DNA from: Pseudomonas phage vB_Paer_PsCh
DNA: 64,000 bases
Sequence record: OM870969.1
Direction: 5' to 3' (one strand)
Made by a program: the position numbers and the translations under genes. Shown here piece after piece: positions 1,522 to 19,094 of this stretch (positions within the stretch are counted from its first letter, which is position 1; each line of letters opens with the position of its first letter). The notes beneath the pieces were generated by a model. The model made no database searches, was not told the DNA's origin, and was given only the letters and a program-made list of their open reading frames with translations.

Positions 1522-1533
1522 TAGGAGGCGGCG

Positions 1534-2982: not shown

Positions 2983-3453
2983 ATGCTGACTCTTGAAAGT
3001 GTTATTGAAGCTCTCAGCAATGCTTTCGGGGCTCCCGCCAAGGCGGAAGAAGCCCCGGCTGTAGAGGTCACAAAGTCCCTAGACAATGAAAAGAGGATGG
3101 CTTTGTTTGTCGTTCTTGAGCCCCAAGAAGGCGACTCCACGACTGACCTACACGCAGACACCTACTCCGAAGAGGAAGTAGAGAAAGCTTGCATCAACTT
3201 CAATACTCATTGCAACGTAGCTAATATCTTCCACAAGATTGAAACACAGGAAGCTGAGATTGTCCAGTCCTTCATCGCTCCATCCGCATTCACAACTGAC
3301 GACGGAAGAGAGATCAAGAAAGGTACATGGCTCCAGTGGTGGCACTTCCCTGAAGGCTCTGAAGTAGCTGATACGCTATGGGAAGGCGTTAAATCTGGTG
3401 AATTCACAGGCGTCTCTATCGGTGCCAGAGCTACAGTCGAGGATATCGAATGA
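2983..3453 (+). CDS. head morphogenesis protein (possible prohead protease or minor capsid protein)
   Basis: 156-aa ORF between portal and scaffold, translationally coupled to the scaffold gene. His-rich segment and a C-terminal GVSIG motif; function not established. Confidence 0.3.
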   Translation: MLTLESVIEALSNAFGAPAKAEEAPAVEVTKSLDNEKRMALFVVLEPQEGDSTTDLHADTYSEEEVEKACINFNTHCNVANIFHKIETQEAEIVQSFIAPSAFTTDDGREIKKGTWLQWWHFPEGSEVADTLWEGVKSGEFTGVSIGARATVEDIE

Positions 3454-4367
3454 CCGTAAAAGCAAAACGTAAACTGACCGATATCAAGTTTGAACACGAA
3501 GGTGCTCACGTCGCTCTGGTCAGTAAGCTTCAAGGTGGTGCAGCCAACGGGCACACTACTCTTATCACAAAAGCTACCAATGGCGTAACTGAAGAGCTTA
3601 TCGATAAAGCTGCTGAAGTTACAGTCACAATGCAGTTCCCTGAGTTCCTTCGTAAGTTCTTCGGGATGTATTATGACGATGCCGAAGTTCTCTCTGTTGC
3701 CATGGGATATGGCAGAACGGAGTATCCAGAACTAGATCACAAAGACTGGATCGACCAGCGGGTCGAGTCTATGTCCATTCTTAAGTCGGTTTATAAATCT
3801 GCTGACCTGAATCAAGCTCTCTCCGAGCTTACCCCTGAGCAGACCCTTTCCCTTAAACAGGATCAGGAACTGCTTGAAAAGGCTCTGGAGGTAGTCTCCG
3901 AGCAATCCAATGAAAATCCATCCAAGGAGATTACCAACATGGAAACTATCCTGAAATCGGCCCACCTAGAAGCTCTAGCTGACGCTGTTGCAGTTGAAAA
4001 AGCTGCTGGTGTCGCTGCTGTTGCAGAAGTTCAGAAGCAACTAGACGCCGCTAATGTAGAGCTTACAGCTCTTCGTGAAATTGTCAAGGCTGCTGAGGCA
4101 GAGAAAACCGCTGCTATCACCAAAGCCCGTAAAGAGCAACTGGCTGAAGTCCTCCCGGCTGACCAAGTAGAAGATACTTTCAAGTCTCTGGAAGTTCTGG
4201 ACGATCAAGCTTTTGCACAAACAGTAGGAACGCTCCGCATTCTTAAAGCTGCTGCTGACCAAAATGACATGCTTGTCGAGAAAGGTGTATCGGGCGCTGG
4301 GGAAGAAGACGACTCTGTTGTCGCCGGTGTTGCCGCTATCCTGAAAGCTCGCCACGGCTCCAAGTAA
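3450..4367 (+). CDS. scaffolding protein
   Basis: 305 aa with an Ala/Glu/Lys/Leu-rich predicted coiled-coil C-terminal two thirds. Sits between portal and capsid genes. Confidence 0.55.
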   Translation: MTVKAKRKLTDIKFEHEGAHVALVSKLQGGAANGHTTLITKATNGVTEELIDKAAEVTVTMQFPEFLRKFFGMYYDDAEVLSVAMGYGRTEYPELDHKDWIDQRVESMSILKSVYKSADLNQALSELTPEQTLSLKQDQELLEKALEVVSEQSNENPSKEITNMETILKSAHLEALADAVAVEKAAGVAAVAEVQKQLDAANVELTALREIVKAAEAEKTAAITKARKEQLAEVLPADQVEDTFKSLEVLDDQAFAQTVGTLRILKAAADQNDMLVEKGVSGAGEEDDSVVAGVAAILKARHGSK

Positions 4368-4394
4368 TATCTAGCCAATCTAGAGGAATTCCAA

Positions 4395-4805
4395 ATGGCT
4401 CAAAACATTATCGCAAAAGATCATCAGCGTCTTAGCAACTGGCTGAAAGAAGAACAAATGGGCCACCGTGGCCTGTTCTACACTCGCGAAACTCTGCCTG
4501 TCGCTGACATTGATGTTAAAACAACTGGTTCTGTCCTAGACAGCACTGGCAAGCTGGTAACTAAGGCTACTATCGCCGACGCTACCTACATCCTAATGAC
4601 CGACCTGCACGACTATGCCAACGCTCAGATGAGCCACGCTGTCGTCCTTGCTCGCGGTTTTGCCAAGATCGGCTCCAAGGCTGTTATCTTCGGTGCTGAC
4701 GTTGACGACGCTGATAAAGCTACCGTCTTTGAAGCTTTCAAAGCCAAGAACATCTTCGCCGTTGACCAGATCGAAGGCGCATTCGAGAACGTTACCTTCG
4801 CGTAA
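4395..4805 (+). CDS. head decoration-like protein (lambda gpD position analog)
   Basis: 136-aa ORF immediately upstream of the gpE-like major capsid gene, the same order as lambda D then E. Strong RBS GAGG. Confidence 0.35.
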   Translation: MAQNIIAKDHQRLSNWLKEEQMGHRGLFYTRETLPVADIDVKTTGSVLDSTGKLVTKATIADATYILMTDLHDYANAQMSHAVVLARGFAKIGSKAVIFGADVDDADKATVFEAFKAKNIFAVDQIEGAFENVTFA

Positions 4806-4849
4806 GCGAGGGTCGTTCCAGTAAATAAATACTAGGAGTAACTTTAAAA

Positions 4850-5884
4850 ATGGCTAACACCCGTTCCTACCTAAACGATGGTCAGTTCTACATTGCCGAC
4901 CAGACTGAAAACCTGCTTATCATCCCGAACACTTGGACCCTCGTCGAGAACATGGGCGTCTTCACAAGTGAAGGTGTGACTCAGAACACTGTCCAGTTCG
5001 AAGAGATCGAAACTCGCTACGGTCTGGTTAAGGATGCCATCCGTGGAACTCGTCACCAAGTTGCTAGCGACCAACGTCGTCAACTGCGTGCCTTCGCGAT
5101 TCCGCACTTCAACCAAGACGACTACATCACTCCAGAAGATATTCAAGGTAAGCGCGCTTTCGGTGCTGACCGCGAAGAAACTCTGAACGAGGTTCGTGCT
5201 CGTAAGCTGGAAACCATCCGTCGCAACTGGGCTAACACCGCTGAAGTTGCTTCCGTTAGCGCTATCGTAACTGGTAAGAGCTACGCCCCAGCCGGAACCA
5301 TCGAGTACGACTGGTACGACCTGATGGGTAAAACTCGTAAGGTTGTCGGCTTCGACCTGACCAACCCTACCGCTGACGTTATGGGCAAGACCGAAGAAAT
5401 CTTCGTCCATATGCAAGACAACAGCCAAGACGGTCTGATCCGTGGTGACTTCGTTGCCCTGTGCTCTCCTGAGTTCTTCACTGCCCTGATTAACCATCCG
5501 AGCATCAAAGAGTTCTACAAAGCTTACCAAGCTAGTCCTCAATACTGGCGTGAACGTCTAACCGCTCGCGGTCTGGACCTTCGCTTCCGTGAGTTCTACT
5601 TCGGAAACATTCACTTCATCGAATACCGTGGCGTTGACCCGTACGGCAACCGTCTGATCCCGGCTGGCGATGCTTACTTCATCCCAACCGACAGCGGTGA
5701 CCTGTTCGCTCGTTACTTCGGCCCGGGCAGCACTTTCGATGACCTAGGAACTCTGGGTAAAGAACTGTACGCTACCGAGCGTATGGCTGAAGACCGTCGT
5801 TCGATCCTGATCGAAACCGAGTCCAACTTCATCCACGTTCTGCGTCGTCCACAGATGATCGTTCGCGGCACTGTGAATGCGTAA
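4850..5884 (+). CDS. major capsid protein (lambda gpE-like fold family)
   Basis: 344 aa; size, position and C-terminal segments resemble the Phage_cap_E family. RBS AGGAG upstream and a strong terminator immediately downstream, typical of a highly expressed capsid gene. Confidence 0.75.
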   Translation: MANTRSYLNDGQFYIADQTENLLIIPNTWTLVENMGVFTSEGVTQNTVQFEEIETRYGLVKDAIRGTRHQVASDQRRQLRAFAIPHFNQDDYITPEDIQGKRAFGADREETLNEVRARKLETIRRNWANTAEVASVSAIVTGKSYAPAGTIEYDWYDLMGKTRKVVGFDLTNPTADVMGKTEEIFVHMQDNSQDGLIRGDFVALCSPEFFTALINHPSIKEFYKAYQASPQYWRERLTARGLDLRFREFYFGNIHFIEYRGVDPYGNRLIPAGDAYFIPTDSGDLFARYFGPGSTFDDLGTLGKELYATERMAEDRRSILIETESNFIHVLRRPQMIVRGTVNA

Positions 5885-5892
5885 AGACTTCA

Positions 5893-5918
5893 GGGAGGCT
5901 TCGGCCTCCCTTTCGTCG
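5893..5918 (+). terminator. rho-independent terminator (GC stem with UUCG tetraloop)
   Basis: GGGAGGC-TTCG-GCCTCCC hairpin followed by TTTCGTCG, directly after the capsid gene. Confidence 0.7.
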
Positions 5919-5932
5919 TAGGAGGTACCAAA

Positions 5933-6409
5933 ATGGCTTACACTGGTGATCCAGCAAACAACCCTATCGACCGTCTACGAGAGATTGTAGGGGACGTGTG
6001 GGAGCCTCCGATGCTTTCCGACGAAACCTATCAATGGGTGTTGGACAAGAACGAAGGCAACGAAAGACGAGCCGCACTTGAACTTATGCGTATGATGCTC
6101 TTCCGCCTGACAAGGGGAATGAGAGAACGCACAGGTGATATCGAAGTATATGGTGCTGAGTATTTCAACAACTACTTGAAAGCTCTTCAGCTCATTCTCA
6201 AAGACCCGAATATTGCAATTTCTTTGGCCGTGCCATATGCTGGCGGTATCTCCAAATCGGATATGCTGGCTAATGACCTAGACCCCGACAACGTAACACG
6301 GGAATTCTACATCGGTTTTGCAAGACGGGAGAAGCTTTACAACCAGTGCAACCCCGGTCCTCAAGACCTTAGCATGGGGTGTGATTATCTTGGCAAGCTT
6401 CAGTTTTAA
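5933..6409 (+). CDS. head completion / head-tail connector protein
   Basis: 158-aa ORF, RBS AGGAGG, first of four small genes between capsid and sheath. Confidence 0.4.
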   Translation: MAYTGDPANNPIDRLREIVGDVWEPPMLSDETYQWVLDKNEGNERRAALELMRMMLFRLTRGMRERTGDIEVYGAEYFNNYLKALQLILKDPNIAISLAVPYAGGISKSDMLANDLDPDNVTREFYIGFARREKLYNQCNPGPQDLSMGCDYLGKLQF

Positions 6410-6860
6410 AACAGATCGCCGTCGCCTCACATCCTTGATTAAGAGGGTGGAGGCTCTAGACGGAACAACGGTAGAAGTTGGTTTCTTCCCCGAGGACCGA
6501 TATGGTTCTGAAAATGGAAACCTACCAGTTGCACAAGTTGCAGCTTACAACGAATTCGGTACTACTCGCAACCCAACCCGGCCATTCATGGCTCCAACCT
6601 TTGAAGAATTCACATCTCAATTCCACTACGCAAGACTAATGAAGTCCACGTTCGAGAACGTCCTACGCGATGGAAGGCAGACGAATACTCTTCTGAAGAA
6701 ATTGGGTAAAATGGTTGCAGAGCAGATGCAAGTTAACATTGACGACTATCCGGGCTCTAACAGTCCGGCATGGGCAGCTTACAAAGGATTTAACGATCCT
6801 TTATTCCATACTGGAAAGATGCTTGAGTCTGTCAAGTTCCAAATCCATCGGAGGCAATAA
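6318..6860 (+). CDS. head-tail joining (neck) protein, start uncertain
   Basis: Open frame with only one ATG (6318), which overlaps the previous gene by 92 nt. The true start may be a downstream non-ATG codon (GTG or TTG near 6380-6440). Confidence 0.35.
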   Translation: MQDGRSFTTSATPVLKTLAWGVIILASFSFKTDRRRLTSLIKRVEALDGTTVEVGFFPEDRYGSENGNLPVAQVAAYNEFGTTRNPTRPFMAPTFEEFTSQFHYARLMKSTFENVLRDGRQTNTLLKKLGKMVAEQMQVNIDDYPGSNSPAWAAYKGFNDPLFHTGKMLESVKFQIHRRQ

Positions 6861-7240
6861 TGCTCTATCCTACCTTCTCCATGACCAACTTTGTCAAGCT
6901 AGATTTGATTAGAAGAGGGCAGCCCGGAGACGACGGTTTTGGAAGACCTACCCCTCCAGTTGAGACAGTAGTAACAATCACAGCTAACGTTCAACCTATC
7001 GAAAAATCGACAGACACTCGTATCCTTCCAGAGGCCGACAGAAGCAAGGCTTGCTTCAAGGTGTACTCCAGAGGCGAAGAGATTCGCCAGTTAAAGGAAG
7101 GCCCGGGAGGGTGGAGTGCCGATAGATTCATGTGGGAAGGGGAGTTGTATGAAGTTATGAAAGTCATCAACTATTCGATGGGAATCCTAAACCATTACAA
7201 AGCAATTTGTATGAGAGTAGAGAGGAATAGCACAGCATGA
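6860..7240 (+). CDS. head-tail joining protein
   Basis: 126-aa ORF with an ATGA-type overlap with its upstream gene; neck module position. Confidence 0.4.
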   Translation: MLYPTFSMTNFVKLDLIRRGQPGDDGFGRPTPPVETVVTITANVQPIEKSTDTRILPEADRSKACFKVYSRGEEIRQLKEGPGGWSADRFMWEGELYEVMKVINYSMGILNHYKAICMRVERNSTA

Positions 7241-7800
7241 TCCACACAGAGCTAGAAAACTCCCTCTATCTTATGGTCAAAGAGTTGTTCCCCGACTGGC
7301 GTGTAATTCAAGCTTACACGAATAATCAGGAACCGCAAACCCCTTATCTGGCTATCGACATTAAGAGGCTGGATGAACTGGGAAGGGAAAATGTCTCCAA
7401 TATGAGCGATCCCATTAGTCCTTCGCATGGAACTATTCAAGTTCAACAGGACTTCGCAGCCAAAGTCGTATTCGAACTGATTGGCAAGTATGGAGAGACA
7501 GCAAGTGTCTCTGACATGGCAATGGCGATTACTCGGGCAATGCGTACTCCAGCAGGACACGCCGCCCAAAGAAAGTTTAATCTATCCCTTTTCAAACTCC
7601 CTAGCACAAGACGAGTTCCTATGCTAAGAGAAACAGATATGTACATGTTCTATCAAGTTACATGTGAATTTGGATTCTCTGTGATAGAAACCACAACTCA
7701 AGAGTTTGCTGCTGGGGCTGATATTCACGGCGTTTATTACGACGCTGGTCGCCCGGGTCACATTATTGAGTCCCACATCGACATAAACTTCGAACACTAA
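7237..7800 (+). CDS. tail completion / neck protein
   Basis: 187-aa ORF overlapping the stop of the upstream gene; immediately precedes the sheath gene. Confidence 0.4.
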   Translation: MIHTELENSLYLMVKELFPDWRVIQAYTNNQEPQTPYLAIDIKRLDELGRENVSNMSDPISPSHGTIQVQQDFAAKVVFELIGKYGETASVSDMAMAITRAMRTPAGHAAQRKFNLSLFKLPSTRRVPMLRETDMYMFYQVTCEFGFSVIETTTQEFAAGADIHGVYYDAGRPGHIIESHIDINFEH

Positions 7801-7812
7801 TAGGAGACAGGA

Positions 7813-9099
7813 ATGACTGTTCTTACTGATGTAATTGACATTCAGATCAGCCGTGAGACTGCTGCTGTCGCACAGACAAACTTCAACGTTCCTCTGTTCA
7901 TCGCTTCTCACACAAACTTCTCGGAACGTGCCAGAGTCTACAACAGCCTGAAAGGTGTCGCTGAAGACTTCGGAGAATCCGATCCGACATATCTTGCTGC
8001 TGTTCGTTACTTCGGTCAAGCACTGAAGCCACGCAGCCTAGTTATCGGTCGTAGACAAGTTCCTTCTGCTACCGTATCTGTCAGTGTTGTTCAGGAAGGC
8101 CAGAGCTACGTTCTGACCGTCAACGGACTACCAGTCAGCTACGTCAGCCAGCAAGACGACACTGCTACTCTGATTGCCACAGGCCTAAAGGCAGCTTATG
8201 ACGTAACTCCGGTAGCCGGCGTAACCGTCACAGACAACGAAGACGGAACTCTAACCGTCGCTTCTAACGAAGACTGGAGCCTGAAAGTTTCTTCTAACCT
8301 GACAATGGCCGCTGCTCCTTCTACTGAAGGCTGGCCGGCAACTATCACTGCTGTTCAGGGAGAAAACGACGAATGGTATGCACTGAGCATTGACAGCCAC
8401 GCTGACGATGATATCATGGCAGTAGCTACTCATATCGAAGGGACCAAGAAAGTGTTTGTCGGGGCTACTGCTCAGGCTAATACCAAAACTTCCGCAGACA
8501 ACGACATTGCTTCGCGTCTAGTCGCTGGTGGGTTCCAACGTACGGCACTGATGTATCATCCAAACGCTGACGCTCAATTCCCTGAGTGTGCTTGGGTAGG
8601 ATACCAACTGCAAGAGCAACCGGGTAGCAACACATGGACCCATAAAGCTCTAGCTGCCGTAGATGCTTACCGTCTAACCCCAACCGAGTCTACCAACCTG
8701 AAGAACAAGAACGTTACCACGTTCGAGCGCGTTGGTGGTGTCAACCGTACATTCGGTGGCGCTATGGCCGGTGGTGAATGGATCGACGTAATGATTTTCG
8801 TGGACTGGCTGGAAGCCCGCATGACCGAGCGTCTGTGGTTCCGTATGGCTAACTCCAAGAAAATCCCTTACGACGCCGTTGGTGCAACAATTCTGGAATC
8901 GGAAATCAGAGCCCAGCTTAACGAAGGAATTCGTGTTGGTGGTCTGGCTGAAGCTCCGGCTCCTAAAGTCTTCGTACCTGATGTTCTATCCATGTCTCCG
9001 AACATGAGAGCACAGCGTATCTTTGAAGGCATTGAATTTGAAGCCCGTCTGGCCGGTGCCATTCACTTCGTACACATTCGTGGAACTGTGACCGTCTAA
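7813..9099 (+). CDS. contractile tail sheath protein
   Basis: 428 aa, RBS AGGAGA. The C-terminal region (KIPYDAVGATILESEIRAQL...ARLAGAIHFVHIRGTV) matches the conserved sheath C-terminal pattern. Followed by tube genes and upstream of a Mu/P2-type baseplate. Confidence 0.65.
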   Translation: MTVLTDVIDIQISRETAAVAQTNFNVPLFIASHTNFSERARVYNSLKGVAEDFGESDPTYLAAVRYFGQALKPRSLVIGRRQVPSATVSVSVVQEGQSYVLTVNGLPVSYVSQQDDTATLIATGLKAAYDVTPVAGVTVTDNEDGTLTVASNEDWSLKVSSNLTMAAAPSTEGWPATITAVQGENDEWYALSIDSHADDDIMAVATHIEGTKKVFVGATAQANTKTSADNDIASRLVAGGFQRTALMYHPNADAQFPECAWVGYQLQEQPGSNTWTHKALAAVDAYRLTPTESTNLKNKNVTTFERVGGVNRTFGGAMAGGEWIDVMIFVDWLEARMTERLWFRMANSKKIPYDAVGATILESEIRAQLNEGIRVGGLAEAPAPKVFVPDVLSMSPNMRAQRIFEGIEFEARLAGAIHFVHIRGTVTV

Positions 9100-9129
9100 G
9101 GACGGTCCTTCCCATAAGGAGACTACTAA

Positions 9130-9654
9130 ATGGCTGTTCAACGTCTAGCTACATTCTCTCCAGCCGATGTTACCATTGTTATCACTCACCCTGCAACTGG
9201 TGAGAGCATGGTTCTCGGCGGATTCAGCGAAGACAGTATCGTTAACATTGAAAGAAACGCTGACACTTACGTGATGTATACCGGAGCCGACAACACATCG
9301 ACTCGCGTCTACAACGCCTCTAAGTCTGCTACCCTCACTGTTAGCCTTCAACAAACTTCGCCTTCGAACGACTTCCTGACTGCTCTTTACAACTACGACG
9401 ACGCCCGTCGTTCGTCTGAGGGATTGTTCACAATCCACGTTAAAGACAACTCTGGTCGTTCCGACTACTTCAGTGATGACGCCTATGTCGGTGTTGTTCC
9501 GGGTTCTAACTTCTCGAACAGCATGCAGACACGCGATTGGGTTATTCATGCACACAACCTGCAAACTCTAATCGGCGGTAACGCCAAGCTGAGCCCGGGT
9601 GATGCGGATACTCTTCGTAACCTAGGTGTCACACTAGATCAGCGCTGGCTGTAA
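9130..9654 (+). CDS. tail tube protein (paralog 1, likely the major tube protein)
   Basis: 174 aa, RBS AAGGAG. Shares SPxDVxIV and SPSNDFLTALYNYD-type blocks with the next two ORFs. A terminator follows it. Confidence 0.6.
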   Translation: MAVQRLATFSPADVTIVITHPATGESMVLGGFSEDSIVNIERNADTYVMYTGADNTSTRVYNASKSATLTVSLQQTSPSNDFLTALYNYDDARRSSEGLFTIHVKDNSGRSDYFSDDAYVGVVPGSNFSNSMQTRDWVIHAHNLQTLIGGNAKLSPGDADTLRNLGVTLDQRWL

Positions 9655-9675
9655 TATAGCGCTTATGCCACATCG

Positions 9676-9714
9676 ACGGGGAGCTGCCTTAACGGGTGGC
9701 TCCCTTTGTTGTTT
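9676..9714 (+). terminator. rho-independent terminator / attenuator after tube paralog 1
   Basis: GGGGAGC...GCTCCC hairpin followed by TTTGTTGTTT. Confidence 0.5.
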
Positions 9715-9728
9715 CTGGAGGATAGAAA

Positions 9729-10229
9729 TTGATTACCACCTACTCGCCGCGTGACGTGGTTGTAACTCTCGCTGGTATCCATTCCGTGACAGGGTACGCA
9801 GAGGGAGAGTTTATCAGAATTGTAAAAGATATTAAGCCTTTCATCAAGCACGGATCGATGGACGGAGAAATCGCCCGGGTCTACAACAAGGACCAAGGCT
9901 GGCGAGTAGAGTTGACAATCATGCAGTCCTCGCCGACTAACGACATTCTCTCCATGCTATACAACGTGGACATTGCAACCCGAATGGGAAAATTCCCACT
10001 GATGATTAAGGACACGAAGGGTTCTACAAGCTTCCTAGCTCTGACAGCATGGGTGGAAGACCTACCTAGGGTATCTTTCTCTGGACAACTGGAGACCCGC
10101 ACTTGGATTCTAGGGTGCTCTGAGGTCGCCATGAACATTGGCGGAAACGTCGATCAAAGTTTGGTCGAGCAAGCTATCCTGCTGGGAAGCTCTCTTCTGC
10201 CAGCCCTTACGCAATTCGGAGGCTTCTAA
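9729..10229 (+). CDS. tail tube-like protein (paralog 2), TTG start
   Basis: 166 aa with a TTG start preceded by GGAGG. Clearly homologous to 9130..9654 (TYSPRDVVV.., MQSSPTNDILSMLYNVD). Confidence 0.5.
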   Translation: MITTYSPRDVVVTLAGIHSVTGYAEGEFIRIVKDIKPFIKHGSMDGEIARVYNKDQGWRVELTIMQSSPTNDILSMLYNVDIATRMGKFPLMIKDTKGSTSFLALTAWVEDLPRVSFSGQLETRTWILGCSEVAMNIGGNVDQSLVEQAILLGSSLLPALTQFGGF

Positions 10230-10708
10230 TGGCTAACACGGTATTGACATATAGCCCATCTGATGTTAAAATTGTCCTTTGTGGGTATGCTCTCACTGGT
10301 GTAGTTTCTTTCGAAATGTCTTGGCTTTCGAGACCCTACACAATGGTTCGAGGAATCAGAGGGCACCACACCCGGGTCTTCAATAGAGACCTTTCTGCGC
10401 AGATTAGAATCGAGGTTCTTCAGACTTCGGTGTCTAATGATGCATTCTTCTCGCTAGTAGAGCAAGACCGAAGAACACAATCCGCCCGAATCACCTTGTC
10501 TGTCAAGGATACCCACGGTAGCACCATGATGAGCACAGACAACGCTTATGTCAATGGCTACCCTAGCATAACATTCACCGATGGAATCGAGAACAGGGTC
10601 TGGACTATTGATGTTCTGGACTGGACCGATGGCACGGTAGGCGGAAACCAGCAAGTCGGCTTCGACGTGTTTGGAACTGTTCAAGGCGCTCTTAGCTACC
10701 TCAGATAA
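10229..10708 (+). CDS. tail tube-like protein (paralog 3)
   Basis: 159 aa, ATGA overlap with paralog 2. Homologous blocks (TYSPSDVKIV, LQTSVSNDAFFSLVEQD). Confidence 0.5.
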   Translation: MANTVLTYSPSDVKIVLCGYALTGVVSFEMSWLSRPYTMVRGIRGHHTRVFNRDLSAQIRIEVLQTSVSNDAFFSLVEQDRRTQSARITLSVKDTHGSTMMSTDNAYVNGYPSITFTDGIENRVWTIDVLDWTDGTVGGNQQVGFDVFGTVQGALSYLR

Positions 10709-10721
10709 ATAAGGAGTATTT

Positions 10722-11093
10722 ATGTTCGGAAACCAACGTACTGTCATCCACAATGGGACAGAATACACTATCAACCTTCTGCCAGCAACTCGCGGTATCA
10801 GCGTACTGAAGCAGCTAACCAGCTTGCTGGGTCCATCCCTTGCCAAGTATCAAGCTGACCACGACTTCTCTGGAGCCATGAAAGAACTGTTCGATAACAT
10901 CGACAAGGTTCCTGTTGAGAATTTGATCCAGAATCTGATGCTGACAGTTTTCAAAGGTTCGATGGCAATCAATTTCGACACCGAATTCGCTGGCAAGTAT
11001 GACCTGCTGTACGCACTCACAAAAGACGTGATCGAGTTCAACTTCGGCTCGGTTTTTTCTCTAATCGGTTTCGCAGAGGCACCGACGGTATAA
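10722..11093 (+). CDS. tail assembly chaperone (gpG-like)
   Basis: 123-aa acidic ORF between tube and tape measure genes, RBS AAGGAG. Confidence 0.55.
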   Translation: MFGNQRTVIHNGTEYTINLLPATRGISVLKQLTSLLGPSLAKYQADHDFSGAMKELFDNIDKVPVENLIQNLMLTVFKGSMAINFDTEFAGKYDLLYALTKDVIEFNFGSVFSLIGFAEAPTV

Positions 11094-11353
11094 AGACCGG
11101 GGATGGGCAGTCCGAGACTTCAGTCACTACTGATCGAGTTCAGAGTGATCGGAGGGTTAGGGAGGCCCACCAGAAGTTCTCGCAGCATTGGGAGATTTAT
11201 GTGGCTATCACTCACCCTCTCAAGCTAACGACGTATGGGGAACTGAGTACAGTCCTCACTACAGAAGATTTGTACAACATCCTTGAGGTTATAGACGTTC
11301 ACGATACTATCACTCAAGTGGCAAAAGAACACGCAGAGGCTGATAAGAAATGA
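10722..11353 (+). CDS. tail assembly chaperone -1 frameshift fusion product (gpGT-like), predicted
   Basis: The -1 frame is open with no stop from about 11042 to a TGA at 11351-11353 that overlaps the tape measure ATG (AATGA). A T6 run, GGTTTTTTC at 11051-11059, lies in the 0 frame near the chaperone's 3' end. The 257-nt stretch otherwise has no annotated ORF. Confidence 0.4.
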
Positions 11354-13716
11354 TTACAGAAAGGATTGCCCAGCTAACTGGGGAACTTAAATTTACAGTC
11401 GATTCCCGGCCTCTCACTGCTTTTGACAAGAAGCTCGCTGGGGTCGAAGCCCGGCTAAGAGAATTCTCCAAGCTGACGAACAAGCGGTTTGGAGTTAAGC
11501 TAACTCTAGATACAAAAACTCTGAGAGAGGAGCTTGCCAAGGCAGCCACTCAAAGGGTAGTCTTGAAGAACATCGCGGTAGATGCTGCCGCTGTTCGTCT
11601 TATCTCTGAGAAGCTTCAAGAAAGACTGAATGCAACGCCGATCAGGTTGAAGTCTGTTAGGCTAGACCTTAGCGGTATCCGAGATCAGAAAAACTTCGTA
11701 AAGACGGCTCTCGGCCAGACCAAGGTCGATCTACCGGTTGAACTGGGCTTGGCTCAGGCTAGCCGTACGCTGTATGAATGGAAGAAGCGCACAGAGAGTC
11801 GTTTTAAAATTCATCTGAATGCAGACATTAGCCGCTCTAAATTGCTCCAGAATGCACGAAACACACTAAGGGATGTGCAGGGTAGGCTAAACGGTCTTGC
11901 TGTCGCTACGCCTCAAATTAGGCTGTCTGTAGACCGTGCCCATCTTCGTAGAGAGATTCAAGATGTTCTTGAGCAAATCAGACGCGAAGTGAGAATCCGC
12001 ATTGACCTAGAGTCTTCCATCCGAGGAGGTGGTGCAGGTGGATCGAGAGGTACTGCCGGCCATATCCGTCAAGGTATGGGAATGGGGATTGGTAGCGAGC
12101 TAGCCGGGTGGGGACGCGGGTTTATTCCCGGCCTTGGTGGTGCGTTCGCTATTATGCAGCTTAACCGTGCTAACCAAGAACTGCAAGGTCAACGTCTGGC
12201 CATGCAAGCTGTCGGTGGTGGAGTACAGGGTGGTCAAGAGCTACAAGCCACCCTCCGCGATATCTCTCAGCGTCTCGGTCTTGACGATAGAGCAATAGGT
12301 AGCTCCTATGTTAAGATGATGGCTGCCGGACAAGCATCCAACTTCGACAAAACACAGGTTGACGGCATCTTCCAATCCATGGCTGAATATGGACGAGTGA
12401 TGGGTCTGGATGGCGAGGCCATGAAAGGCTCCTTCCGTGCCGTAGAACAGATGATGGGTAAAGGACAAATCATGTCCGAAGAATTGAAAGGTCAGTTGGC
12501 CGAACGATTCCCTGCGGCTGTAGCCCTGATGGCTAAGTCTCAGGATATGTCTATCGCTGAGCTAATGAAAACCATGGAGAAAGGGGAGCTTAAGAGTGAT
12601 GCTCTGATCCCATTCGCCAGAACTCTAGCGGAAGAAGCTCGTAAAGGTGGCGCTCTGGACGCGGCTATGCAAGGTACAGCCGCTCAGCAGGGCCGATTCC
12701 AGTTCGGATGGAACCGCACTATCGAGGCCTTCGCGGCTGGAGGATTCGACCGAGGAATGAGCGACTTCTTCAAGATTGCTGCCCAAGGCATGCAAGACGC
12801 CCTACCACTTGTTACCGCTCTAGGTGGTGGATTCGAAGCGCTTATGCGTCCAGTCAACGCTCTCGTCGGAATTGGCGGGGAACTAGGTTCGCAATGGGAG
12901 AAAATTGCCAATCAGTTCAACTTGACTGGAACTGGACTGACGCTGACGACTGCTCAAACTCTAGCACTTCTAACCCCTATGGGCCGACTGGTTTCTGCCA
13001 TTAGCTGGGGTGCGTTGGCACTGGAAGACTTCATTGTCTTCTTGGAAGGCGGTGATTCGGTGTTCGGGGACTTCTTGAACAACAACGTACAAGCTGCCGA
13101 GACATTCGAAAAGCTAGCCAGTGAATCCAGTGAACTGAAGAACAATCTCGACGGTATCTTCTCTGTTGTCCCGGGGCTAGCTGAAGCGCTCAAAGGTCTA
13201 GAGTTCAATGAAATGCTGGTCAGCACGATGAGAGAACTTGCTGCCATCATGGAGTTCTTCAACAGTGTTGTAGAGAGATTCGCAATAGCCGGCAAGTACA
13301 GGGACGCTAAGATTGCTGAAGCCGGAGGAGACAGAAGTACTATAATGTCGAACATCGACACGATGTACGCTATGTTCAATCCGGAAGATGCAAAAGACAA
13401 GGCCACCTTCATCGGTGACAGGCTAGTAGCTCAGAACATTGACGCGATCCAGACAGAGACTCATACCCGTGCAACCCAGTCCTTGACTCCAGACCAGTTT
13501 GGGTATATGATGCAACGTGGTCAAGTTAGAAACGAAATGGAGGGTGCCCTCAAGAAGAGTGCCATTGACATTAGTTTCAACCTCAATGTTTCTGGTATCG
13601 ATGCTCAGGGTAACGTCATGACAACTGAAGCGCAAGAGCGAGTACGAGAGATCGTTAGTAACGTTCTTGAGGAAGAAATCTCCAGAGCTTCGGCAAGTTA
13701 TAAGGAATCCCAATGA
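11350..13716 (+). CDS. tail tape measure protein
   Basis: 788 aa with a long predicted coiled-coil/helical N-half and Gly/Ala-rich segments. Canonical position after the chaperone. Confidence 0.8.
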   Translation: MITERIAQLTGELKFTVDSRPLTAFDKKLAGVEARLREFSKLTNKRFGVKLTLDTKTLREELAKAATQRVVLKNIAVDAAAVRLISEKLQERLNATPIRLKSVRLDLSGIRDQKNFVKTALGQTKVDLPVELGLAQASRTLYEWKKRTESRFKIHLNADISRSKLLQNARNTLRDVQGRLNGLAVATPQIRLSVDRAHLRREIQDVLEQIRREVRIRIDLESSIRGGGAGGSRGTAGHIRQGMGMGIGSELAGWGRGFIPGLGGAFAIMQLNRANQELQGQRLAMQAVGGGVQGGQELQATLRDISQRLGLDDRAIGSSYVKMMAAGQASNFDKTQVDGIFQSMAEYGRVMGLDGEAMKGSFRAVEQMMGKGQIMSEELKGQLAERFPAAVALMAKSQDMSIAELMKTMEKGELKSDALIPFARTLAEEARKGGALDAAMQGTAAQQGRFQFGWNRTIEAFAAGGFDRGMSDFFKIAAQGMQDALPLVTALGGGFEALMRPVNALVGIGGELGSQWEKIANQFNLTGTGLTLTTAQTLALLTPMGRLVSAISWGALALEDFIVFLEGGDSVFGDFLNNNVQAAETFEKLASESSELKNNLDGIFSVVPGLAEALKGLEFNEMLVSTMRELAAIMEFFNSVVERFAIAGKYRDAKIAEAGGDRSTIMSNIDTMYAMFNPEDAKDKATFIGDRLVAQNIDAIQTETHTRATQSLTPDQFGYMMQRGQVRNEMEGALKKSAIDISFNLNVSGIDAQGNVMTTEAQERVREIVSNVLEEEISRASASYKESQ

Positions 13717-14474
13717 CAATTGCTATCAAAAGAGAGAACGGAGACCTAATCTGGTTCGACGCTGTTACAGAGTTCGGAAGACAGTACCGTGGCTCTGTGA
13801 GTTCCAACCCAATCGAAACGGGAGGAAAAATCACAGACCACATTACTACAGAAAACCCAGTCTTCACTCTTACAGCCGTCGTATCAGACGCAGACTTCAA
13901 CTTGAACAGGCCCGTTATCAACGACAACGAGGCCCAGACATACAAGATCAACAACAAAGAGTTCGTGAATACGCAGCCGGTAACCATCCCGGCTGTTATC
14001 TCAACCTCTAGACTAGACCCTAGCAGAATCTTTCCAGAAGTTATCACTCAGTTTATTCCTCCTGAGATTCCTTCTGCAACTGTCCTCCCTCAAAAGGGTG
14101 ATAAAGTCGCTTATGATATTGAGCGCCAACTGATCGACATGCAGCGTAATGCTGAGGTCTTCAGTTTGCTGGACTTCCGAGACGGTATCATCTGGGATCA
14201 AATCGAAAGATGCATCTTCACCGACTTGTCTTTCACTGAAAACGCCGAGACAGGTAGCAGCCTTCAACCCCGTATGACAATCGAGGCTGTGACATTCACA
14301 GACACTCGTTATATCGAGGTTAGGGTTAACAAGGGTAGAAAGACCGCTAAGAAAGAAAAGAGAGACACCAAAGAAGGTGATACCGGGGCTAGCAATGCAA
14401 CCGGGCAAGACTCTCCTACATTCAAGCGTAGTCAAATGAAAGAGGCTCAGATTAGAACTCAGGTTGCGAGGTAG
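13713..14474 (+). CDS. tail/baseplate-associated protein
   Basis: 253-aa ORF overlapping the tape measure stop; first gene of the baseplate module. Function unassigned. Confidence 0.35.
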   Translation: MTIAIKRENGDLIWFDAVTEFGRQYRGSVSSNPIETGGKITDHITTENPVFTLTAVVSDADFNLNRPVINDNEAQTYKINNKEFVNTQPVTIPAVISTSRLDPSRIFPEVITQFIPPEIPSATVLPQKGDKVAYDIERQLIDMQRNAEVFSLLDFRDGIIWDQIERCIFTDLSFTENAETGSSLQPRMTIEAVTFTDTRYIEVRVNKGRKTAKKEKRDTKEGDTGASNATGQDSPTFKRSQMKEAQIRTQVAR

Positions 14475-14479
14475 ACTAA

Positions 14480-14836
14480 ATGAGCACGACTTATATCGAC
14501 ACACTTCCTCTTTACCAAGATCGGAAGTACAGATACGCAGTAGCTATCGAGGGAATCTCAAGAGTCCTTCAATTCTACTGGAATAGCCGCTCTCGGCAGT
14601 GGCACATGGATATATTCGACGAGGAACTCAACCCTATCCTGACAGGACTGGCGGTTGTTCCTCAGTATCCGATTATGGCAGATTACGCCATGCAACATAT
14701 AGGTTTCAATGGCTACTTCCTGCTGATGCCTGTCAACCTAGAACAGGTGCAGTATAAGCACGATGCAAGTGACATTGTACCACAGTTTTTCGAACTGCTA
14801 TACGTAAACGTTGACTTGGAGGATGACGTAGAGTGA
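14480..14836 (+). CDS. baseplate module protein
   Basis: 118-aa ORF translationally coupled to the hub gene. Confidence 0.35.
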   Translation: MSTTYIDTLPLYQDRKYRYAVAIEGISRVLQFYWNSRSRQWHMDIFDEELNPILTGLAVVPQYPIMADYAMQHIGFNGYFLLMPVNLEQVQYKHDASDIVPQFFELLYVNVDLEDDVE

Positions 14837-15750
14837 AACAATATGACAGAGTGTATAAACTAACGCTCGGTAATACTGAGTCCGGGCAAGGTGTAGAGAT
14901 TACAAACCTCCACCCTGACGGAAGTTTGAACAGAGAGGGACTTCAGTTCCGGTTCGATATCTCTAAAAGTTCAGATAACAAGAAGAGCGGAAACTCGGCT
15001 ACTGTTGAGATATACAATCTGTCGATTGCAACTCTAAACCTTCTTGAAACCGAATACCTTACTTGCAGACTAGAAGTGGGGTATAAAGAAGCTGGAACTT
15101 CCGTTGTTCTAGATGGTAATGTTGTCGAAACATCCACAAGAAAGAGTGGAAACGACTACGTGACTCAGCTTATTCTTGGTGAGGGTTACACTGCTCTAAC
15201 TGAGACTAAGCTGAAGGGCACAGTATCTCCGGGCAAAACTGTAAAGGATGTTATCGAAGAGATTCGTCTTCAAATGCCGGGAGTGGACAGAGGAGCTTAT
15301 ACAGGCCTCAATTGCAATAACCCGATCATGTACGGCTATCAACTCCGTGGTCTGGCCAAAGACGCTCTAAACAGCGTGTGTGAAGCCAACAATATTGAAT
15401 GGAACATCAGTGGAAACGTTCTAAACGTCACAGACGTTAACGGACCAACAACGAAGAGTGTTCAAATGGCTCCTCTCGTAAACAGAGAGACCGGCCTGAT
15501 TGATATTCCATTCTACGCCAGTGCCAGCGGAACAGCACAGAAGAAAGACCAGCGGAGACGGCGAGGCGTTCAATTCAAATGCCTTCTCAATCCTGAGCTA
15601 ACTCCCGGGGTTCTTGTCCGGGTAGAATCGGACAGACTGTCGGGCACTTTTAGAATCAACAACGTCCGAATCTCGGGCGGATACAGAGACAACGAATGGT
15701 ACACTGAATGCTGGTGTTCCGATCTTAACCAAGAGGATATTGACCAATGA
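14833..15750 (+). CDS. baseplate hub protein (Mu gp44 / P2 gpD-like)
   Basis: 305 aa. The N-terminal pattern VYKLTLGN..GVEITNL..LQFRFDISKS..NSATVEIYNLS is typical of the hub/late-control-D family. Precedes the gpV-like spike. Confidence 0.5.
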   Translation: MKQYDRVYKLTLGNTESGQGVEITNLHPDGSLNREGLQFRFDISKSSDNKKSGNSATVEIYNLSIATLNLLETEYLTCRLEVGYKEAGTSVVLDGNVVETSTRKSGNDYVTQLILGEGYTALTETKLKGTVSPGKTVKDVIEEIRLQMPGVDRGAYTGLNCNNPIMYGYQLRGLAKDALNSVCEANNIEWNISGNVLNVTDVNGPTTKSVQMAPLVNRETGLIDIPFYASASGTAQKKDQRRRRGVQFKCLLNPELTPGVLVRVESDRLSGTFRINNVRISGGYRDNEWYTECWCSDLNQEDIDQ

Positions 15751-16487
15751 GGAGAACAGGCCTACAAGAGCTTCTGAACCTGCACTCGTCCACGGAAGGC
15801 TCGAAGCAGTACACTGCCATACCTTGTGTGGTATTGCGCGTTCTGGACGATTTTAGACGCCTCTCTGTCGATGTTAGACCAGTGGTCAACGACCTATACA
15901 AAGACGGCACATCGGAAGAGCAACCAGAGATTCTATCTGTCCCTGTCATTATGCCGGGAACAGCTAACACACTTATTAGTTTCCCATTGAATGTCGGGGA
16001 CACGGTGTTGTGTGTATTCTCTCAAAGAACTATGGACGTGTTTAAAGGCTCTGCCACTGGGCAGCCTCACACTCCAAACGATCTTCGTAAGTTCAACATG
16101 GCGGATGCCATTGCCATTCCCGGGCTGTTCACATTCCCTAGATCGATGAACGACCCTGCAAGACACAGTTGGCCGCACGATACCAAAGACCTCACTATTG
16201 CCCACAACCTGATGACTGGACAAGAGGCCGAGGTTAGGATCAAAGCCAATGGAGATATTCTAATCAACAGCCGTAAGACTATAAGCATTAATGCTCAAAA
16301 TGTCAACGTAAAGTGCGCTTCCCTCACTGTTGATGCAGCCCATACAACATGGAACGGGAACATTGCACATACAGGTAACTACGTGCAGACTGGTGGAACC
16401 TCTACATTCAACGGTATTCCATTCCACACTCACAAACACGGCGGTGTTATGCCGGGCGGTGGTGTTACTGCTGTCCCACAAGCTTAA
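15747..16487 (+). CDS. baseplate central spike (gpV / Mu gp45-like)
   Basis: 246 aa. OB-fold-like N-terminal region (VVLRVLDDFRRLSVDVRPVVND..) and C-terminal Gly-rich tip (HTGNYVQTGGTSTFNGIPFHTHKHGG), typical of Phage_base_V. Confidence 0.6.
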   Translation: MRRTGLQELLNLHSSTEGSKQYTAIPCVVLRVLDDFRRLSVDVRPVVNDLYKDGTSEEQPEILSVPVIMPGTANTLISFPLNVGDTVLCVFSQRTMDVFKGSATGQPHTPNDLRKFNMADAIAIPGLFTFPRSMNDPARHSWPHDTKDLTIAHNLMTGQEAEVRIKANGDILINSRKTISINAQNVNVKCASLTVDAAHTTWNGNIAHTGNYVQTGGTSTFNGIPFHTHKHGGVMPGGGVTAVPQA

Positions 16488-16497
16488 AGGAGATCAT

Positions 16498-16869
16498 ATG
16501 GACTTGTTTGTCAACCCCGACACACATGACTTGGTTTTTATAAATGGTGAAGCTCCAGTCACTCAACGAATGGTTGATATTGTTGCTCAGCGACTAAAGA
16601 TCAAACTGTACACATTCCTAGGTGAGTGGTTCTTGGATGATAGGATCGGCATCCCCTACTTCGAGAGGATTCTTGGTAAGTCTAGGAGCCTTCCCGCTGT
16701 TGACGCGATATTCCAATCTGAGATTATGAGAGACCCCGGCGTCCTTGAGATTACATCTTGGCAGTCGGGGATCGACCCTCACACACGTGAATACTCCATG
16801 GAGTTCACAGTCAGAACCACAGACAATACAGAATCCCTTCCCATCACTTTCAGAATGATAGGAGTTTAA
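16498..16869 (+). CDS. baseplate wedge protein (gp25 / gpW-like)
   Basis: 123 aa from the ATG at 16498 (RBS AAGGAGA); the upstream in-frame extension in the ORF track is unlikely. GPW_gp25-like: MDLFVNPDTHDLVFINGEAPV..YTFLGEWFLD..GIPYFE. Confidence 0.65.
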   Translation: MDLFVNPDTHDLVFINGEAPVTQRMVDIVAQRLKIKLYTFLGEWFLDDRIGIPYFERILGKSRSLPAVDAIFQSEIMRDPGVLEITSWQSGIDPHTREYSMEFTVRTTDNTESLPITFRMIGV

Positions 16870-16870
16870 T

Positions 16871-18334: not shown

Positions 18335-18352
18335 TAATAGAAGGAGAATTCC

Positions 18353-19084
18353 ATGGCTGTCAACCAATTTGACAGAGAAGACTATCTGGAGGTGGCCCGG
18401 GAACGGGTCACTGAACAGTTTAAAGAGAAGCCAATCTTTGATCGCTTCCTGCAAGTGCTGTTGTCTGGTAAGTTTGATATCCAGAATGCACTGGAAGACC
18501 TCCAGACTCTCCGGTCTCTGGACACAGCCACCGGGAAGCAACTGGACATTATCGGAGACATTGTAGGGCGACCACGTGGTCTAGTGTACCAAGATATTTT
18601 CAACTATTTTGGATTCGCTGGAACAGAGCGTGCAGGTTCTTTCGGAAGCCTGTCTGACCCTACGGTCGGTGCTCCATGGTACTCGGTCGGTGCTCCAACT
18701 GGTAACGCCAGAGAGCCGAGCGACGAAGAGTATCGGATGATCCTGAAAGCAAAGATCATCAAGAACAGAACAAACTCAACCCCAGAGCAAGTTATCGAAG
18801 CTTATAAATTTGTATTCGGGGTTCCTGAAGTATTCCTAGAGGAGTACGCTCCCGCTGCTGTCCGTATCGGCATCGGTAAGATTCTAACGAACGTAGAGCG
18901 TAGTCTTCTATTCGACCTAGGTGGTGCAGGTGCATTGCTTCCTAAGACTATCGGGGTTAACTACACATACACTGAGTTCCAAGCTGGCCGGGTATTTGCT
19001 ACAGAAGGCTTCCCCGGAGGACAAGGCGTTGGAGACCTAAACGATCCCACTGTTGGTGGAATTCTGACCAACCTAGTGACATAA
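18353..19084 (+). CDS. baseplate/tail protein (P2 gpI / Mu gp48-like)
   Basis: 243-aa ORF, RBS GAAGGAG, following the J-like gene. Confidence 0.5.
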   Translation: MAVNQFDREDYLEVARERVTEQFKEKPIFDRFLQVLLSGKFDIQNALEDLQTLRSLDTATGKQLDIIGDIVGRPRGLVYQDIFNYFGFAGTERAGSFGSLSDPTVGAPWYSVGAPTGNAREPSDEEYRMILKAKIIKNRTNSTPEQVIEAYKFVFGVPEVFLEEYAPAAVRIGIGKILTNVERSLLFDLGGAGALLPKTIGVNYTYTEFQAGRVFATEGFPGGQGVGDLNDPTVGGILTNLVT

Positions 19085-19094
19085 GGAGTTATAA

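Follow-up and report, generated by a model that had tools for sequence, protein, structure and literature searches.

In the tail of phage T4, two proteins of the tube fold, gp48 and gp54, form rings between the baseplate hub and the gp19 tube, and they are thought to template tube polymerisation. The genes of gp19, gp48 and gp54 are not in tandem, and recognisable sequence similarity among their products has been lost. The tube fold is also found in the tube terminators of some contractile systems.

The closest described system is that of the Pakpunavirus P7-1, whose tail was solved by cryo-EM (Li et al., Commun Biol 2026, PMC13338283). Its main tube consists of gp77 (residues 1-174), with 204 copies in 34 stacked hexamers, whereas gp78 ("tail tube-B") and gp79 ("tail tube-C") contribute 6 + 6 copies, i.e., one hexameric ring each in the baseplate cap, coaxial with the tube. 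The tube-B ring adjoins the main tube and the tube-C ring is located between tube-B and the Dit-like gp83, with which it is in contact, giving the axial order tube-A, tube-B, tube-C, Dit-like ring gp83, hub gp85 and spike gp86. The neck is composed of gp72, gp74 and gp75, the last of which is named sheath terminator, and every modelled gene product was detected by LC-MS of the virions. The paper is silent on an intergenic terminator, a TTG start, a stop/start overlap and the age of the duplication (PMC13338283).

A terminator is known from the respective region of the Nankokuvirus PAK_P3, in which a G+C-rich hairpin followed by a T-run is placed between tube-A and tube-B (Chevallereau et al. 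2016, PMC4933390). In phi92, Sf13/Sf14 and phiEt88, a DUF3383-type sheath gene is followed by a PF11681-type tube gene. In phi92, Sf13 and phiEt88 this is the single tube gene between the sheath and the chaperone, and in phi92 and Sf13 a terminator hairpin lies directly 3′ of it.

The window, i.e., the whole stretch of 64,000 nucleotides analysed from Pseudomonas phage vB_Paer_PsCh (OM870969.1), is a Pakpunavirus sequence with 99.9% identity to Pseudomonas phage vB_Paer_Ps25 and 98.3% to PaP1. It shares the sheath-tube gene succession with the phages above and the position of the post-tube hairpin with PAK_P3, phi92 and Sf13. It has three tube genes (tube-A, tube-B and tube-C, or paralogs 1 to 3), where phi92, Sf13 and phiEt88 have one. 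We are highly confident that this is the Pakpunavirus tail-tube module, in which an old tandem triplication produced one structural subunit and two proteins of tube-to-baseplate rings (table 1). The initial annotation, which noted three homologous tube genes downstream of the sheath gene and an attenuator after the first of them, was correct, and what it noted is ordinary: the roles and the terminator are already known from the literature.

Table 1. Features of the tail-tube region, in positions of the window, with the evidence for each assignment
Feature	Coordinates	Strand	Evidence
Tail completion / sheath terminator protein (P7-1 gp75)	7237..7800	+	PF23961 Phage_tail_terminator_9, E 4.9e-15; PDB 9zbs_e 'Tail completion protein' full length, E 1.8e-125
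Tail sheath (P7-1 gp76)	7813..9099	+	PF11863 DUF3383 E 1e-34; PHROG 205 E 6e-127; PDB 9zdk_S full length E 6e-283
Tail tube-A, paralog 1, major tube (P7-1 gp77), 174 aa	9130..9654	+	ATG; Shine-Dalgarno AAGGAGA 9116-9122; PF11681 57.2 bits; PHROG 280 E 1.4e-45
Intrinsic-terminator-like element, putative attenuator	9678..9715	+	Stem-loop 9678-9705, then interrupted T-tract TTGTTGTTTC
Tail tube-B, paralog 2 (P7-1 gp78), 166 aa	9729..10229	+	TTG; Shine-Dalgarno GGAGGA 9717-9722; PDB 9zd7_H/9zd8 identity; PHROG 280 E 1.7e-44
Tail tube-C, paralog 3 (P7-1 gp79), 159 aa	10229..10708	+	ATG; Shine-Dalgarno GGAGG 10218-10222; PDB 9zd7_G/9zd8 identity; PHROG 280 E 5.4e-40
Tail assembly chaperone	10722..11093	+	PF21822 Phage_TAC_15 E 1.7e-23; PHROG 1613 E 3e-40
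Tape measure	11350..13716		Gene order 3′ of chaperone
Dit-like ring (P7-1 gp83, 'sheath initiator')	13713..14474	+	PF21821 Dit_like E 5.8e-22; PDB 9zd7_A full length E 2e-165

The three ORFs are present where the initial annotation had placed them, including the TTG start of the second, and the sheath gene lies directly 5′ of them as it had stated. The ATG of tube-C overlaps the stop codon of tube-B by one base (TAATG). The chaperone gene is the first low-copy non-tube gene 3′ of the paralogs, and it would be on a shared readthrough transcript. The order sheath, three paralogs, chaperone, tape measure was also found in seven related phages, and the axial order of the rings in P7-1 agrees with the order of the genes. 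P7-1 (PDB 9ZD7, 9ZD8) carries the same three genes, with identical paralogs 2 and 3 and a gp77 equal in length to paralog 1. The sheath, Dit-like and terminator proteins of the window match gp76, gp83 and the 9ZBS chain in full length, and there is no structural difference between P7-1 and the window.

Pairwise BLASTP showed that the three proteins are full-length paralogs with 29-31% identity (E 5e-26 to 2e-18). In detail, tube-A and tube-B share 30% identity over 149 columns (E 5e-26), tube-A and tube-C 31% over 152 columns (E 2e-18), and tube-B and tube-C 29% over 140 columns (E 1e-19). The similarity extends over the whole length and is not restricted to short low-complexity stretches, a case which the initial annotation had considered. 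Both of the shared blocks that it had described were found in the alignment of the three paralogs, with a correction in the first one, where paralog 1 has F and not Y. This block has invariant T8, S10, P11, D13 and V14 and reads T(F/Y)SPxDV, and the central block has invariant Q75, S77, N80, D81, L86 and D90 (QxSxxNDxxxxLxxxD).

All three paralogs match PHROG 280 (E 1e-40 to 1e-45) and cover nearly the whole profile. The match to PF11681 (KPP10_Orf10, formerly DUF3277) is graded: at 57.2 bits, paralog 1 exceeds the curated cut-off of 25 bits, paralog 2 falls short of it with 17.7 bits, and the search with this profile gave no match for paralog 3. By the Pfam threshold, paralog 1 is therefore the sole member of this family.

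The triplication is conserved in related myoviruses, with orthologs of tube-A, tube-B and tube-C in Pakpunavirus, Nankokuvirus, Otagovirus and other Pseudomonas phages. In the tree from the protein alignment (50 bootstraps), each of the A, B and C clades among the Pseudomonas phages was supported by 50/50 replicates. As judged from these clades, the triplication is older than the split of Pakpunavirus, Nankokuvirus and Otagovirus. The T4 tube and its gp48/gp54 rings follow the same logic as the tube with tube-B and tube-C in the window, but the genes of the window are adjacent and their products still 29-31% identical, so that the sequence itself shows that they arose by duplication. As a case of tandem duplication of a tube gene leading to the tube-initiator rings of the baseplate, the locus is unusually clear. 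In the related PhiTE, a second tube-like chain of 156 aa is found in the baseplate entry (PDB 9cuy) besides the main tube of 160 aa.

Tube-B (residues 1-166) is 100% identical to gp78 (PDB 9zd7_H / 9zd8, E 1.6e-108) and tube-C (residues 1-159) is 100% identical to gp79 (PDB 9zd7_G / 9zd8, E 7e-105), with six chains of each per entry. Through the identity to these solved chains and the published description of the baseplate cap, each of the two proteins can be placed in a single ring. This agrees with the proposal that the minor copies act as tube initiator or baseplate adaptor, since both rings are at the baseplate end. The rings would assemble from the hub upward, with tube-C and then tube-B templating the polymerisation of tube-A, by analogy with contractile tails in general and with gp48/gp54 of T4 in particular. 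From their position and the example of T4, we infer that tube-B and tube-C would be needed to nucleate the polymerisation of the tube.

That one of the minor paralogs is a tube terminator or cap at the neck end, as had been offered alternatively, has a practically negligible probability, although such a role would fit the tube fold of some terminators and the weak matches of the AlphaFold2 (AF2) model of paralog 1 to the AFP and PVC cap entries. Both gp78 and gp79 are placed by cryo-EM in the baseplate cap, between the tube and gp83, and the neck of P7-1 has its own proteins (PMC13338283), with the gene of gp75 being a separate ORF of a different family (PF23961). None of the terminator-family profiles searched in Pfam and PHROG was matched by any of the three paralogs. 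The neck-end terminator role belongs to this separate gene.

The defined single-ring positions in P7-1 also contradict the suggestion that paralogs 2 and 3 are tube variants. Their similar length and shared fold, and their scores below the Pfam recognition cut-off, might be expected from interchangeable variants mixed into the main tube or from decaying duplicates without function, but this explanation is extremely improbable. The two form distinct and well-supported ortholog clades that are kept in all the groups of phages named above, their proteins are identical among the Pakpunaviruses, and they hold fixed places in the solved structure. Both also occur in the virions of PhiPsa374, where they are roughly 50 to 170 times less abundant than tube-A: the LC-MS AUC values of gp068, gp069 and gp070, the orthologs of A, B and C, are 7.57e8, 4.56e6 and 1.56e7, respectively (PMC9796965 Table 1).

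Paralog 1 is assigned as the major tube subunit, as the initial annotation had assumed. It is of the same length (174 residues) as gp77, which is present in 204 copies (PMC13338283), and the Pakpunavirus records agree in its whole amino acid sequence (100% identity). In Otagovirus, the ortholog of tube-A is the third most abundant protein of the virion (PMC9796965). The equivalence of paralog 1 and gp77 is supported by the text of the P7-1 paper, the length, the gene order and a moderate AF2 model. This model, built with an alignment of the three sequences as the only input and used for confirmation at the level of the fold only, is mediocre (pLDDT 65, pTM 0.62). Its best Foldseek matches are the tube proteins of Pam3 (E 2e-7), Bas63, Sf14 and PhiTE, and the tube fold of relatives such as Sf14 and PhiTE is consistent with it. 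gp77 is absent from all deposited PDB entries, and a sequence search with paralog 1 gave no identical chain in them. A main tube built from gp78 and gp79, which the missing chain could suggest, was rejected, because the tube model was left out of the deposited entries and the text assigns the tube to gp77 (PMC13338283 Table 1).

The hairpin and T-run that had been reported after the first copy (at 9676-9714) are real. The stem has 12 pairs, seven of which are G-C, and a loop of 4, and it is followed by the T-rich tail TTGTTGTTTC; this is the top-ranked terminator-like site within 4000..20000. The segment 9670..9716 folds at -23.4 kcal/mol (z = -4.75), and none of the 200 shuffled sequences (0/200) was equally stable. 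As the tract is interrupted by two G and several pairs of the stem are G-U, the strength of the terminator cannot be judged from the sequence.

The hairpin sequence is identical to a 'terminator' feature of PAK_P4 (NC_022986.1, 10496..10521) and is also annotated as a terminator in EPA1. In PaP1 the site was predicted as terminator T4 in 2013 (PMC3652863 Table 3). The 74-nt spacer between tube-A and tube-B is ≥99% identical in 110 of the 122 Pakpunavirus records, and the surrounding 3.3 kb reach this level in only 13/122. By this comparison, spacer and hairpin are conserved beyond the neutral expectation.

Hairpins of unrelated sequence are located at the same position in eight of the nine related lineages examined. 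A diverged hairpin with a T-run is found in PAK_P3, phiPsa381, KoPa-4, Boevelstad, Acinetobacter phage R2096, phi92 and Sf13, and each of these seven is more stable than its shuffles (z -2.0 to -5.5). Conservation of the hairpin refers here to its position and to the shuffle z-score of each sequence, the arms being too diverged across genera for reliable alignment. In Acinetobacter phage Ab7, the A-B gap is only 8 nt and has no hairpin. The hairpins of PAK_P3 and the window are unrelated in sequence (GGCCGCCC...GGGCGGCC against GGGGAGCTGCC...GGGTGGCTCCC), the T-tract of PAK_P3 is a clean T6 whereas that of the window is interrupted, and tube-B of PAK_P3 starts with ATG whereas that of the window starts with TTG. 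The terminator after the tube gene is not specific to the arrangement of paralogs, as the single-tube phages phi92 and Sf13 have one ahead of the chaperone gene.

Transcription data exist for PAK_P3, in whose record the equivalent site is annotated as 'Rho-Independent Terminator (RNA-Seq)' (NC_022970.1, 9515..9535). On the + strand of the structural module, this record has only three terminator features in total and, up to 24.8 kb, no promoter feature. The late RNA-seq densities of tube-A and tube-B in three replicates are 358 vs 49, 28 vs 3.4 and 415 vs 51 reads/nt (PMC4933390 S5 Table), i.e., a 7.3- to 8.3-fold drop, with the downstream genes still expressed. The claim of a higher expression of the first copy through an attenuator is in agreement with this drop, with the annotation in PAK_P4 and with the diverged hairpins of the relatives; its second part, the readthrough, would hold for the window phage by analogy. 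In this model, transcription of the sheath and tube-A genes would be strong, and most RNA polymerases would be halted by the hairpin and its T-tract (9678..9715). The minority that pass this site would transcribe tube-B and tube-C, followed by the genes of the chaperone, the tape measure and the baseplate. As the 74-nt spacer leaves no room for a promoter 3′ of the hairpin, tube-B would be translated from readthrough transcripts. Partial termination as the reason for the scarcity of tube-B and tube-C is thus partly shown in the relatives and partly inferred for the window phage.

Alternatively, the hairpin could terminate the sheath/tube-A unit almost completely, and one or more separate promoters would then drive most of the expression of tube-B, tube-C and the genes 3′ of them. 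In PAK_P3, tube-B and tube-C have 8-12 times as many sense reads as tube-A at 3.5 min, and late in infection the densities of tube-C and the chaperone are about twice that of tube-B (PMC4933390). Readthrough is therefore not the sole input, at least in the genus of PAK_P3. Shortly after the start codons of tube-B and tube-C in PAK_P3, and after that of tube-C in the window (10244..10272; TTGACA-17-TAAAAT and a TG upstream), there are sigma-70-like sites, and ONT-cappable-seq recovered 58 sigma-70-like promoters in PAK_P3 (PMC10914365). These sites are 3′ of the start codons, and therefore could not give full-length mRNA of tube-B or tube-C, and they may merely reflect the coding sequence, as their hexamers are codons of the conserved (V)LTYSPxDVxI motif. 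A promoter 3′ of the hairpin would not fit into the spacer, and the PAK_P3 record has no + strand promoter feature between 9.5 and 24.8 kb. In PAK_P4, which belongs to the same genus as the window phage, tube-B (gp014) follows the rest of the operon in its strong late up-regulation (PMC5563952), unlike in PAK_P3, and the early transcription of tube-B and tube-C seen in PAK_P3 is absent. Own promoters as the main source are thus unlikely.

The site at 10244..10272 is a poor candidate for an independent promoter, given its location 3′ of the start codon, the coincidence of its hexamers with the LTYSP.DV.I codons and the late regulation of tube-B in PAK_P4. For the early transcription in PAK_P3 a more speculative explanation is that promoters within the codons of the conserved N-terminal motif might allow the initiator rings to be made before the late operon.

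With partial readthrough as the preferred reading, two further elements may act on translation. The TTG start of tube-B probably fine-tunes the ratio, and the TAATG overlap probably ties tube-C to tube-B, so that the two are made 1:1. The RNA ratio of about 8:1 falls well below the protein ratio of 34:1, so that control at the level of translation or overproduction of tube-B and tube-C must supply the remainder. It can be proposed tentatively, with more doubt than confidence, that a ratio of about 34:1:1 is hard-wired by three stacked cis elements, namely the leaky terminator, the weak TTG and the TAATG coupling, and that the terminator is an ancient and conserved stoichiometry device of the myovirus lineage with DUF3383 sheaths and PF11681 tubes. 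If this is true, removal of the terminator would disturb tail assembly. The conserved terminator, the TTG start and the stop/start overlap are also simple handles for engineering in these therapeutic phages.

The value of these results as a discovery is small, because the structure of 2026 covers a phage with gp78 and gp79 identical to paralogs 2 and 3 and gives the roles of the three proteins, and predictions or annotations of the terminator date back to 2013-2017. In many GenBank records the tube genes are still described as "hypothetical" or "virion structural protein", and one record labels tube-A "rI antiholin". The names tail tube, tube-B and tube-C can now replace these labels.

The three ORFs that the initial annotation had read as tandem paralogs of the tail tube protein are present downstream of the sheath gene as described (tube-A, tube-B and tube-C in the table). 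Their homology over the full length was borne out by pairwise BLASTP (identity 30%, 31% and 29%; E 5e-26, 2e-18 and 1e-19, respectively), and the two shared motif blocks noted earlier correspond to invariant columns of the three-way alignment. Each of the three proteins matches PHROG 280 (E <=1e-40), and tube-A alone passes the Pfam cut-off of PF11681 (KPP10_Orf10, formerly DUF3277). The region shares 99.9% identity with Pseudomonas phage vB_Paer_Ps25 and 98-99% with PaP1, C11 and ~120 further Pakpunavirus genomes.

Features of the tube gene region and its surroundings (window coordinates unless stated)
Feature	Coordinates	Strand	Details
Second hairpin	5892..5911		after major capsid gene 4850..5884; GGGAGGC-TTCG-GCCTCCC then TTTCGTCGT
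Tail sheath, DUF3383-type	7813..9099		upstream of tube-A
Tube-A (paralog 1)	9130..9654		174 aa; ATG start
Putative attenuator stem-loop	9678..9705		12 pairs, 7 G-C; tail TTGTTGTTTC
Tube-B (paralog 2)	9729..10229		166 aa; TTG start
Tube-C (paralog 3)	10229..10708		159 aa; ATG start
Tail assembly chaperone	10722..11093		six-T run at 11053-11058
Antisense RNA as08	~9333..9733 (PAK_P4 locus extract 6151..6551)	minus	3' part of tube-A and terminator
Antisense RNA as09	~10083..10703 (PAK_P4 locus extract 6901..7521)	minus	tube-B end and most of tube-C

The annotation of these genes varies among records. In phage JHP, tube-A is misnamed 'rI antiholin' in GenBank. In the PAK_P3 RefSeq record the N-termini of tube-B and tube-C are cut off (locus extract 3198..3569 and 3668..4072); the starts are placed at 9689 and 10159, versus 9557 and 10060 in the authors' RNA-seq table, and the conserved TYSPxDV motif is missing because the annotated starts lie too far downstream. 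The spacer between sheath and tube-A is only 30 nt in the window. At this position, a 777-nt gene annotated 'putative endonuclease', probably a homing endonuclease, is present in some Pakpunaviruses, among them PAK_P4 (locus extract 5159..5935) and vB_PaM_EPA3.

The roles of the three proteins follow from the structural atlas of Pakpunavirus P7-1, the source of PDB entries 9ZD7, 9ZD8, 9ZDK and 9ZBS (PMC13338283; Commun Biol 2026, preprint November 2025). The gp78 and gp79 chains of 9ZD7/9ZD8, six of each per entry, show 100% full-length identity with paralogs 2 and 3, respectively. The P7-1 tube is built of gp77 (residues 1-174) in 204 copies, that is, 34 hexamers, and the baseplate continues beyond gp78/gp79 with gp83, then hub gp85 and then spike gp86 (PMC13338283). 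Full-length matches were also obtained for the window sheath, to gp76 of 9ZDK (E 6e-283), and for the Dit-like protein encoded at 13713..14474, to gp83 (E 2e-165). The PDB sequence search with paralog 1 returned no identical chain, because the deposited P7-1 models all omit the tube (PMC13338283 Table 1); the best Foldseek matches of its AF2 model (pLDDT 65) are the tube proteins of Pam3, Bas63, Sf14 and PhiTE. The main tube is thus made of paralog 1, and paralogs 2 and 3 each form a single ring that joins the tube to the baseplate. The initial interpretation was essentially right about the major tube, the baseplate adaptor and, probably, the attenuator. A role as tube terminator, also suggested there, was rejected for both minor copies; at the neck end this role is filled by a separate gene (7237..7800, PF23961), whose product matches the chain named 'Tail completion protein' in 9ZBS over the full length (E 1.8e-125). 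These roles are already known, having been published with the near-atomic structures of P7-1. The gene order in 9130..16487 (tube-A, tube-B, tube-C, chaperone, tape measure, Dit-like ring gp83, adaptor gp84, hub gp85, spike gp86) is the order along the P7-1 tail axis.

LC-MS of P7-1 virions likewise detected the structural proteins that cryo-EM had annotated (PMC13338283). Otagovirus PhiPsa374 has an orthologous triplet, gp068/gp069/gp070, with virion LC-MS AUC values of 7.57e8, 4.56e6 and 1.56e7 for tube-A, tube-B and tube-C, respectively (PMC9796965 Table 1). All three copies are therefore virion proteins in PhiPsa374, with tube-A ~50- to 170-fold above the other two.

The putative attenuator, a terminator-like hairpin with a T-tract between tube-A and tube-B, ranked first among the terminator-like sites within the 16 kb scanned (-23.4 kcal/mol; z = -4.75 against shuffles). 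The same sequence is an annotated terminator in PAK_P4 (10496..10521) and in EPA1, and terminator T4 of PaP1 was predicted at this site in 2013 (PMC3652863 Table 3); the equivalent site of PAK_P3 is annotated 'Rho-Independent Terminator (RNA-Seq)'. The terminator itself is not new, having been predicted or annotated before, with RNA-seq support in a sister genus. The 74-nt spacer holding it shows >=99% identity in 110 out of 122 Pakpunavirus records, and the surrounding 3.3 kb in only 13. The PAK_P4 record also places two RNA-seq-based antisense RNAs, as08 and as09, over the tube genes; its authors proposed that such RNAs keep structural genes repressed during the early phase of infection.

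In PAK_P3, late (13 min) reads per nt dropped from 358 in tube-A to 49 in tube-B in one replicate, from 28 to 3.4 in another and from 415 to 51 in the third (PMC4933390 S5 Table), a fall of 7.3- to 8.3-fold. Late read density in PAK_P3 also falls 4- to 6-fold past the major capsid gene, at the site of a second hairpin. The window equivalent of this hairpin, 5892..5911, folds at -16.3 kcal/mol (z = -4.2) and is annotated in PAK_P4 as a 'putative terminator'. Expression of the late operon thus seems to be lowered stepwise, past the capsid gene and again past the tube gene.

On the + strand of the structural module, the PAK_P3 record has three terminator features only and no promoter feature before 24.8 kb. 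In the window, the tube-B Shine-Dalgarno (9717-9722) abuts the T-tract and a promoter would not fit. Readthrough is therefore the likeliest source of tube-B mRNA, presumably also in the present phage. The TTG start is shared by the P7-1 tube-B model, and tube-B orthologs of other genera start with ATG. The stop codon of tube-B and the ATG of tube-C overlap in the sequence TAATG, and the gap between the two genes never exceeds ~14 nt in relatives. From general knowledge of bacterial translation, TTG would lower tube-B translation and the overlap would couple tube-B and tube-C 1:1.

Early in PAK_P3 infection (3.5 min), strand-specific sense reads of tube-B and tube-C are 8-12x those of tube-A (PMC4933390), and early sense transcription is confined to these two genes (record coordinates 9557..10563). 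Sigma-70-like sites are found just within the 5' ends of both (in the window, 10244..10272 within tube-C), and their hexamers fall on codons for the conserved motif LTYSPxDVxI at the N-terminus. Unlike PAK_P3, tube-B of PAK_P4 is strongly late-regulated (PMC5563952); the early transcription was treated as a peculiarity of PAK_P3.

PAK_P3, phiPsa381, KoPa-4, Boevelstad and Acinetobacter phage R2096 have a hairpin of unrelated sequence, with a T-run behind it, at this position; in phi92 and Sf13, which have one tube gene only, such a hairpin follows that gene. Each of these hairpins exceeds its own shuffles in stability. The sole exception among the relatives examined is Acinetobacter phage Ab7, with no hairpin in its 8-nt spacer (locus extract 3526..3533). 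The terminator therefore marks the border between high-copy (sheath, tube) and low-copy genes, and is a trait of the whole tail lineage, not tied to the paralog arrangement. Ab7 also has two tandem 'tail sheath' CDSs (1146 and 1044 nt; locus extract 769..2970) before its tube triplet.

By tblastn, three tube copies per genome are found in Pakpunavirus, Nankokuvirus, Otagovirus, KoPa-4, Y1-MI and Boevelstad. One to two were detected in R2096 and Ab7, which have three ORFs at the corresponding position. A single tube gene directly followed by the chaperone is found in phi92, phiEt88 and Sf13. A neighbour-joining tree built from 24 proteins separates the Pseudomonas phage copies into an A, a B and a C clade (each in 50/50 bootstraps), so the triplication is older than the split of these genera. 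The tree gives the Acinetobacter B and C copies no firm position; in Ab7 and R2096 the tube-C homologs are extended at the N-terminus.

Downstream of the triplet, the six-T run of the chaperone gene resembles, by its sequence, the usual programmed -1 frameshift site of tail chaperones. The -1 frame is open from this run to 11353 (stretch 11049..11353), ending just at the tape measure start (11350), and is annotated in PaP1 as a separate small ORF, gp161.
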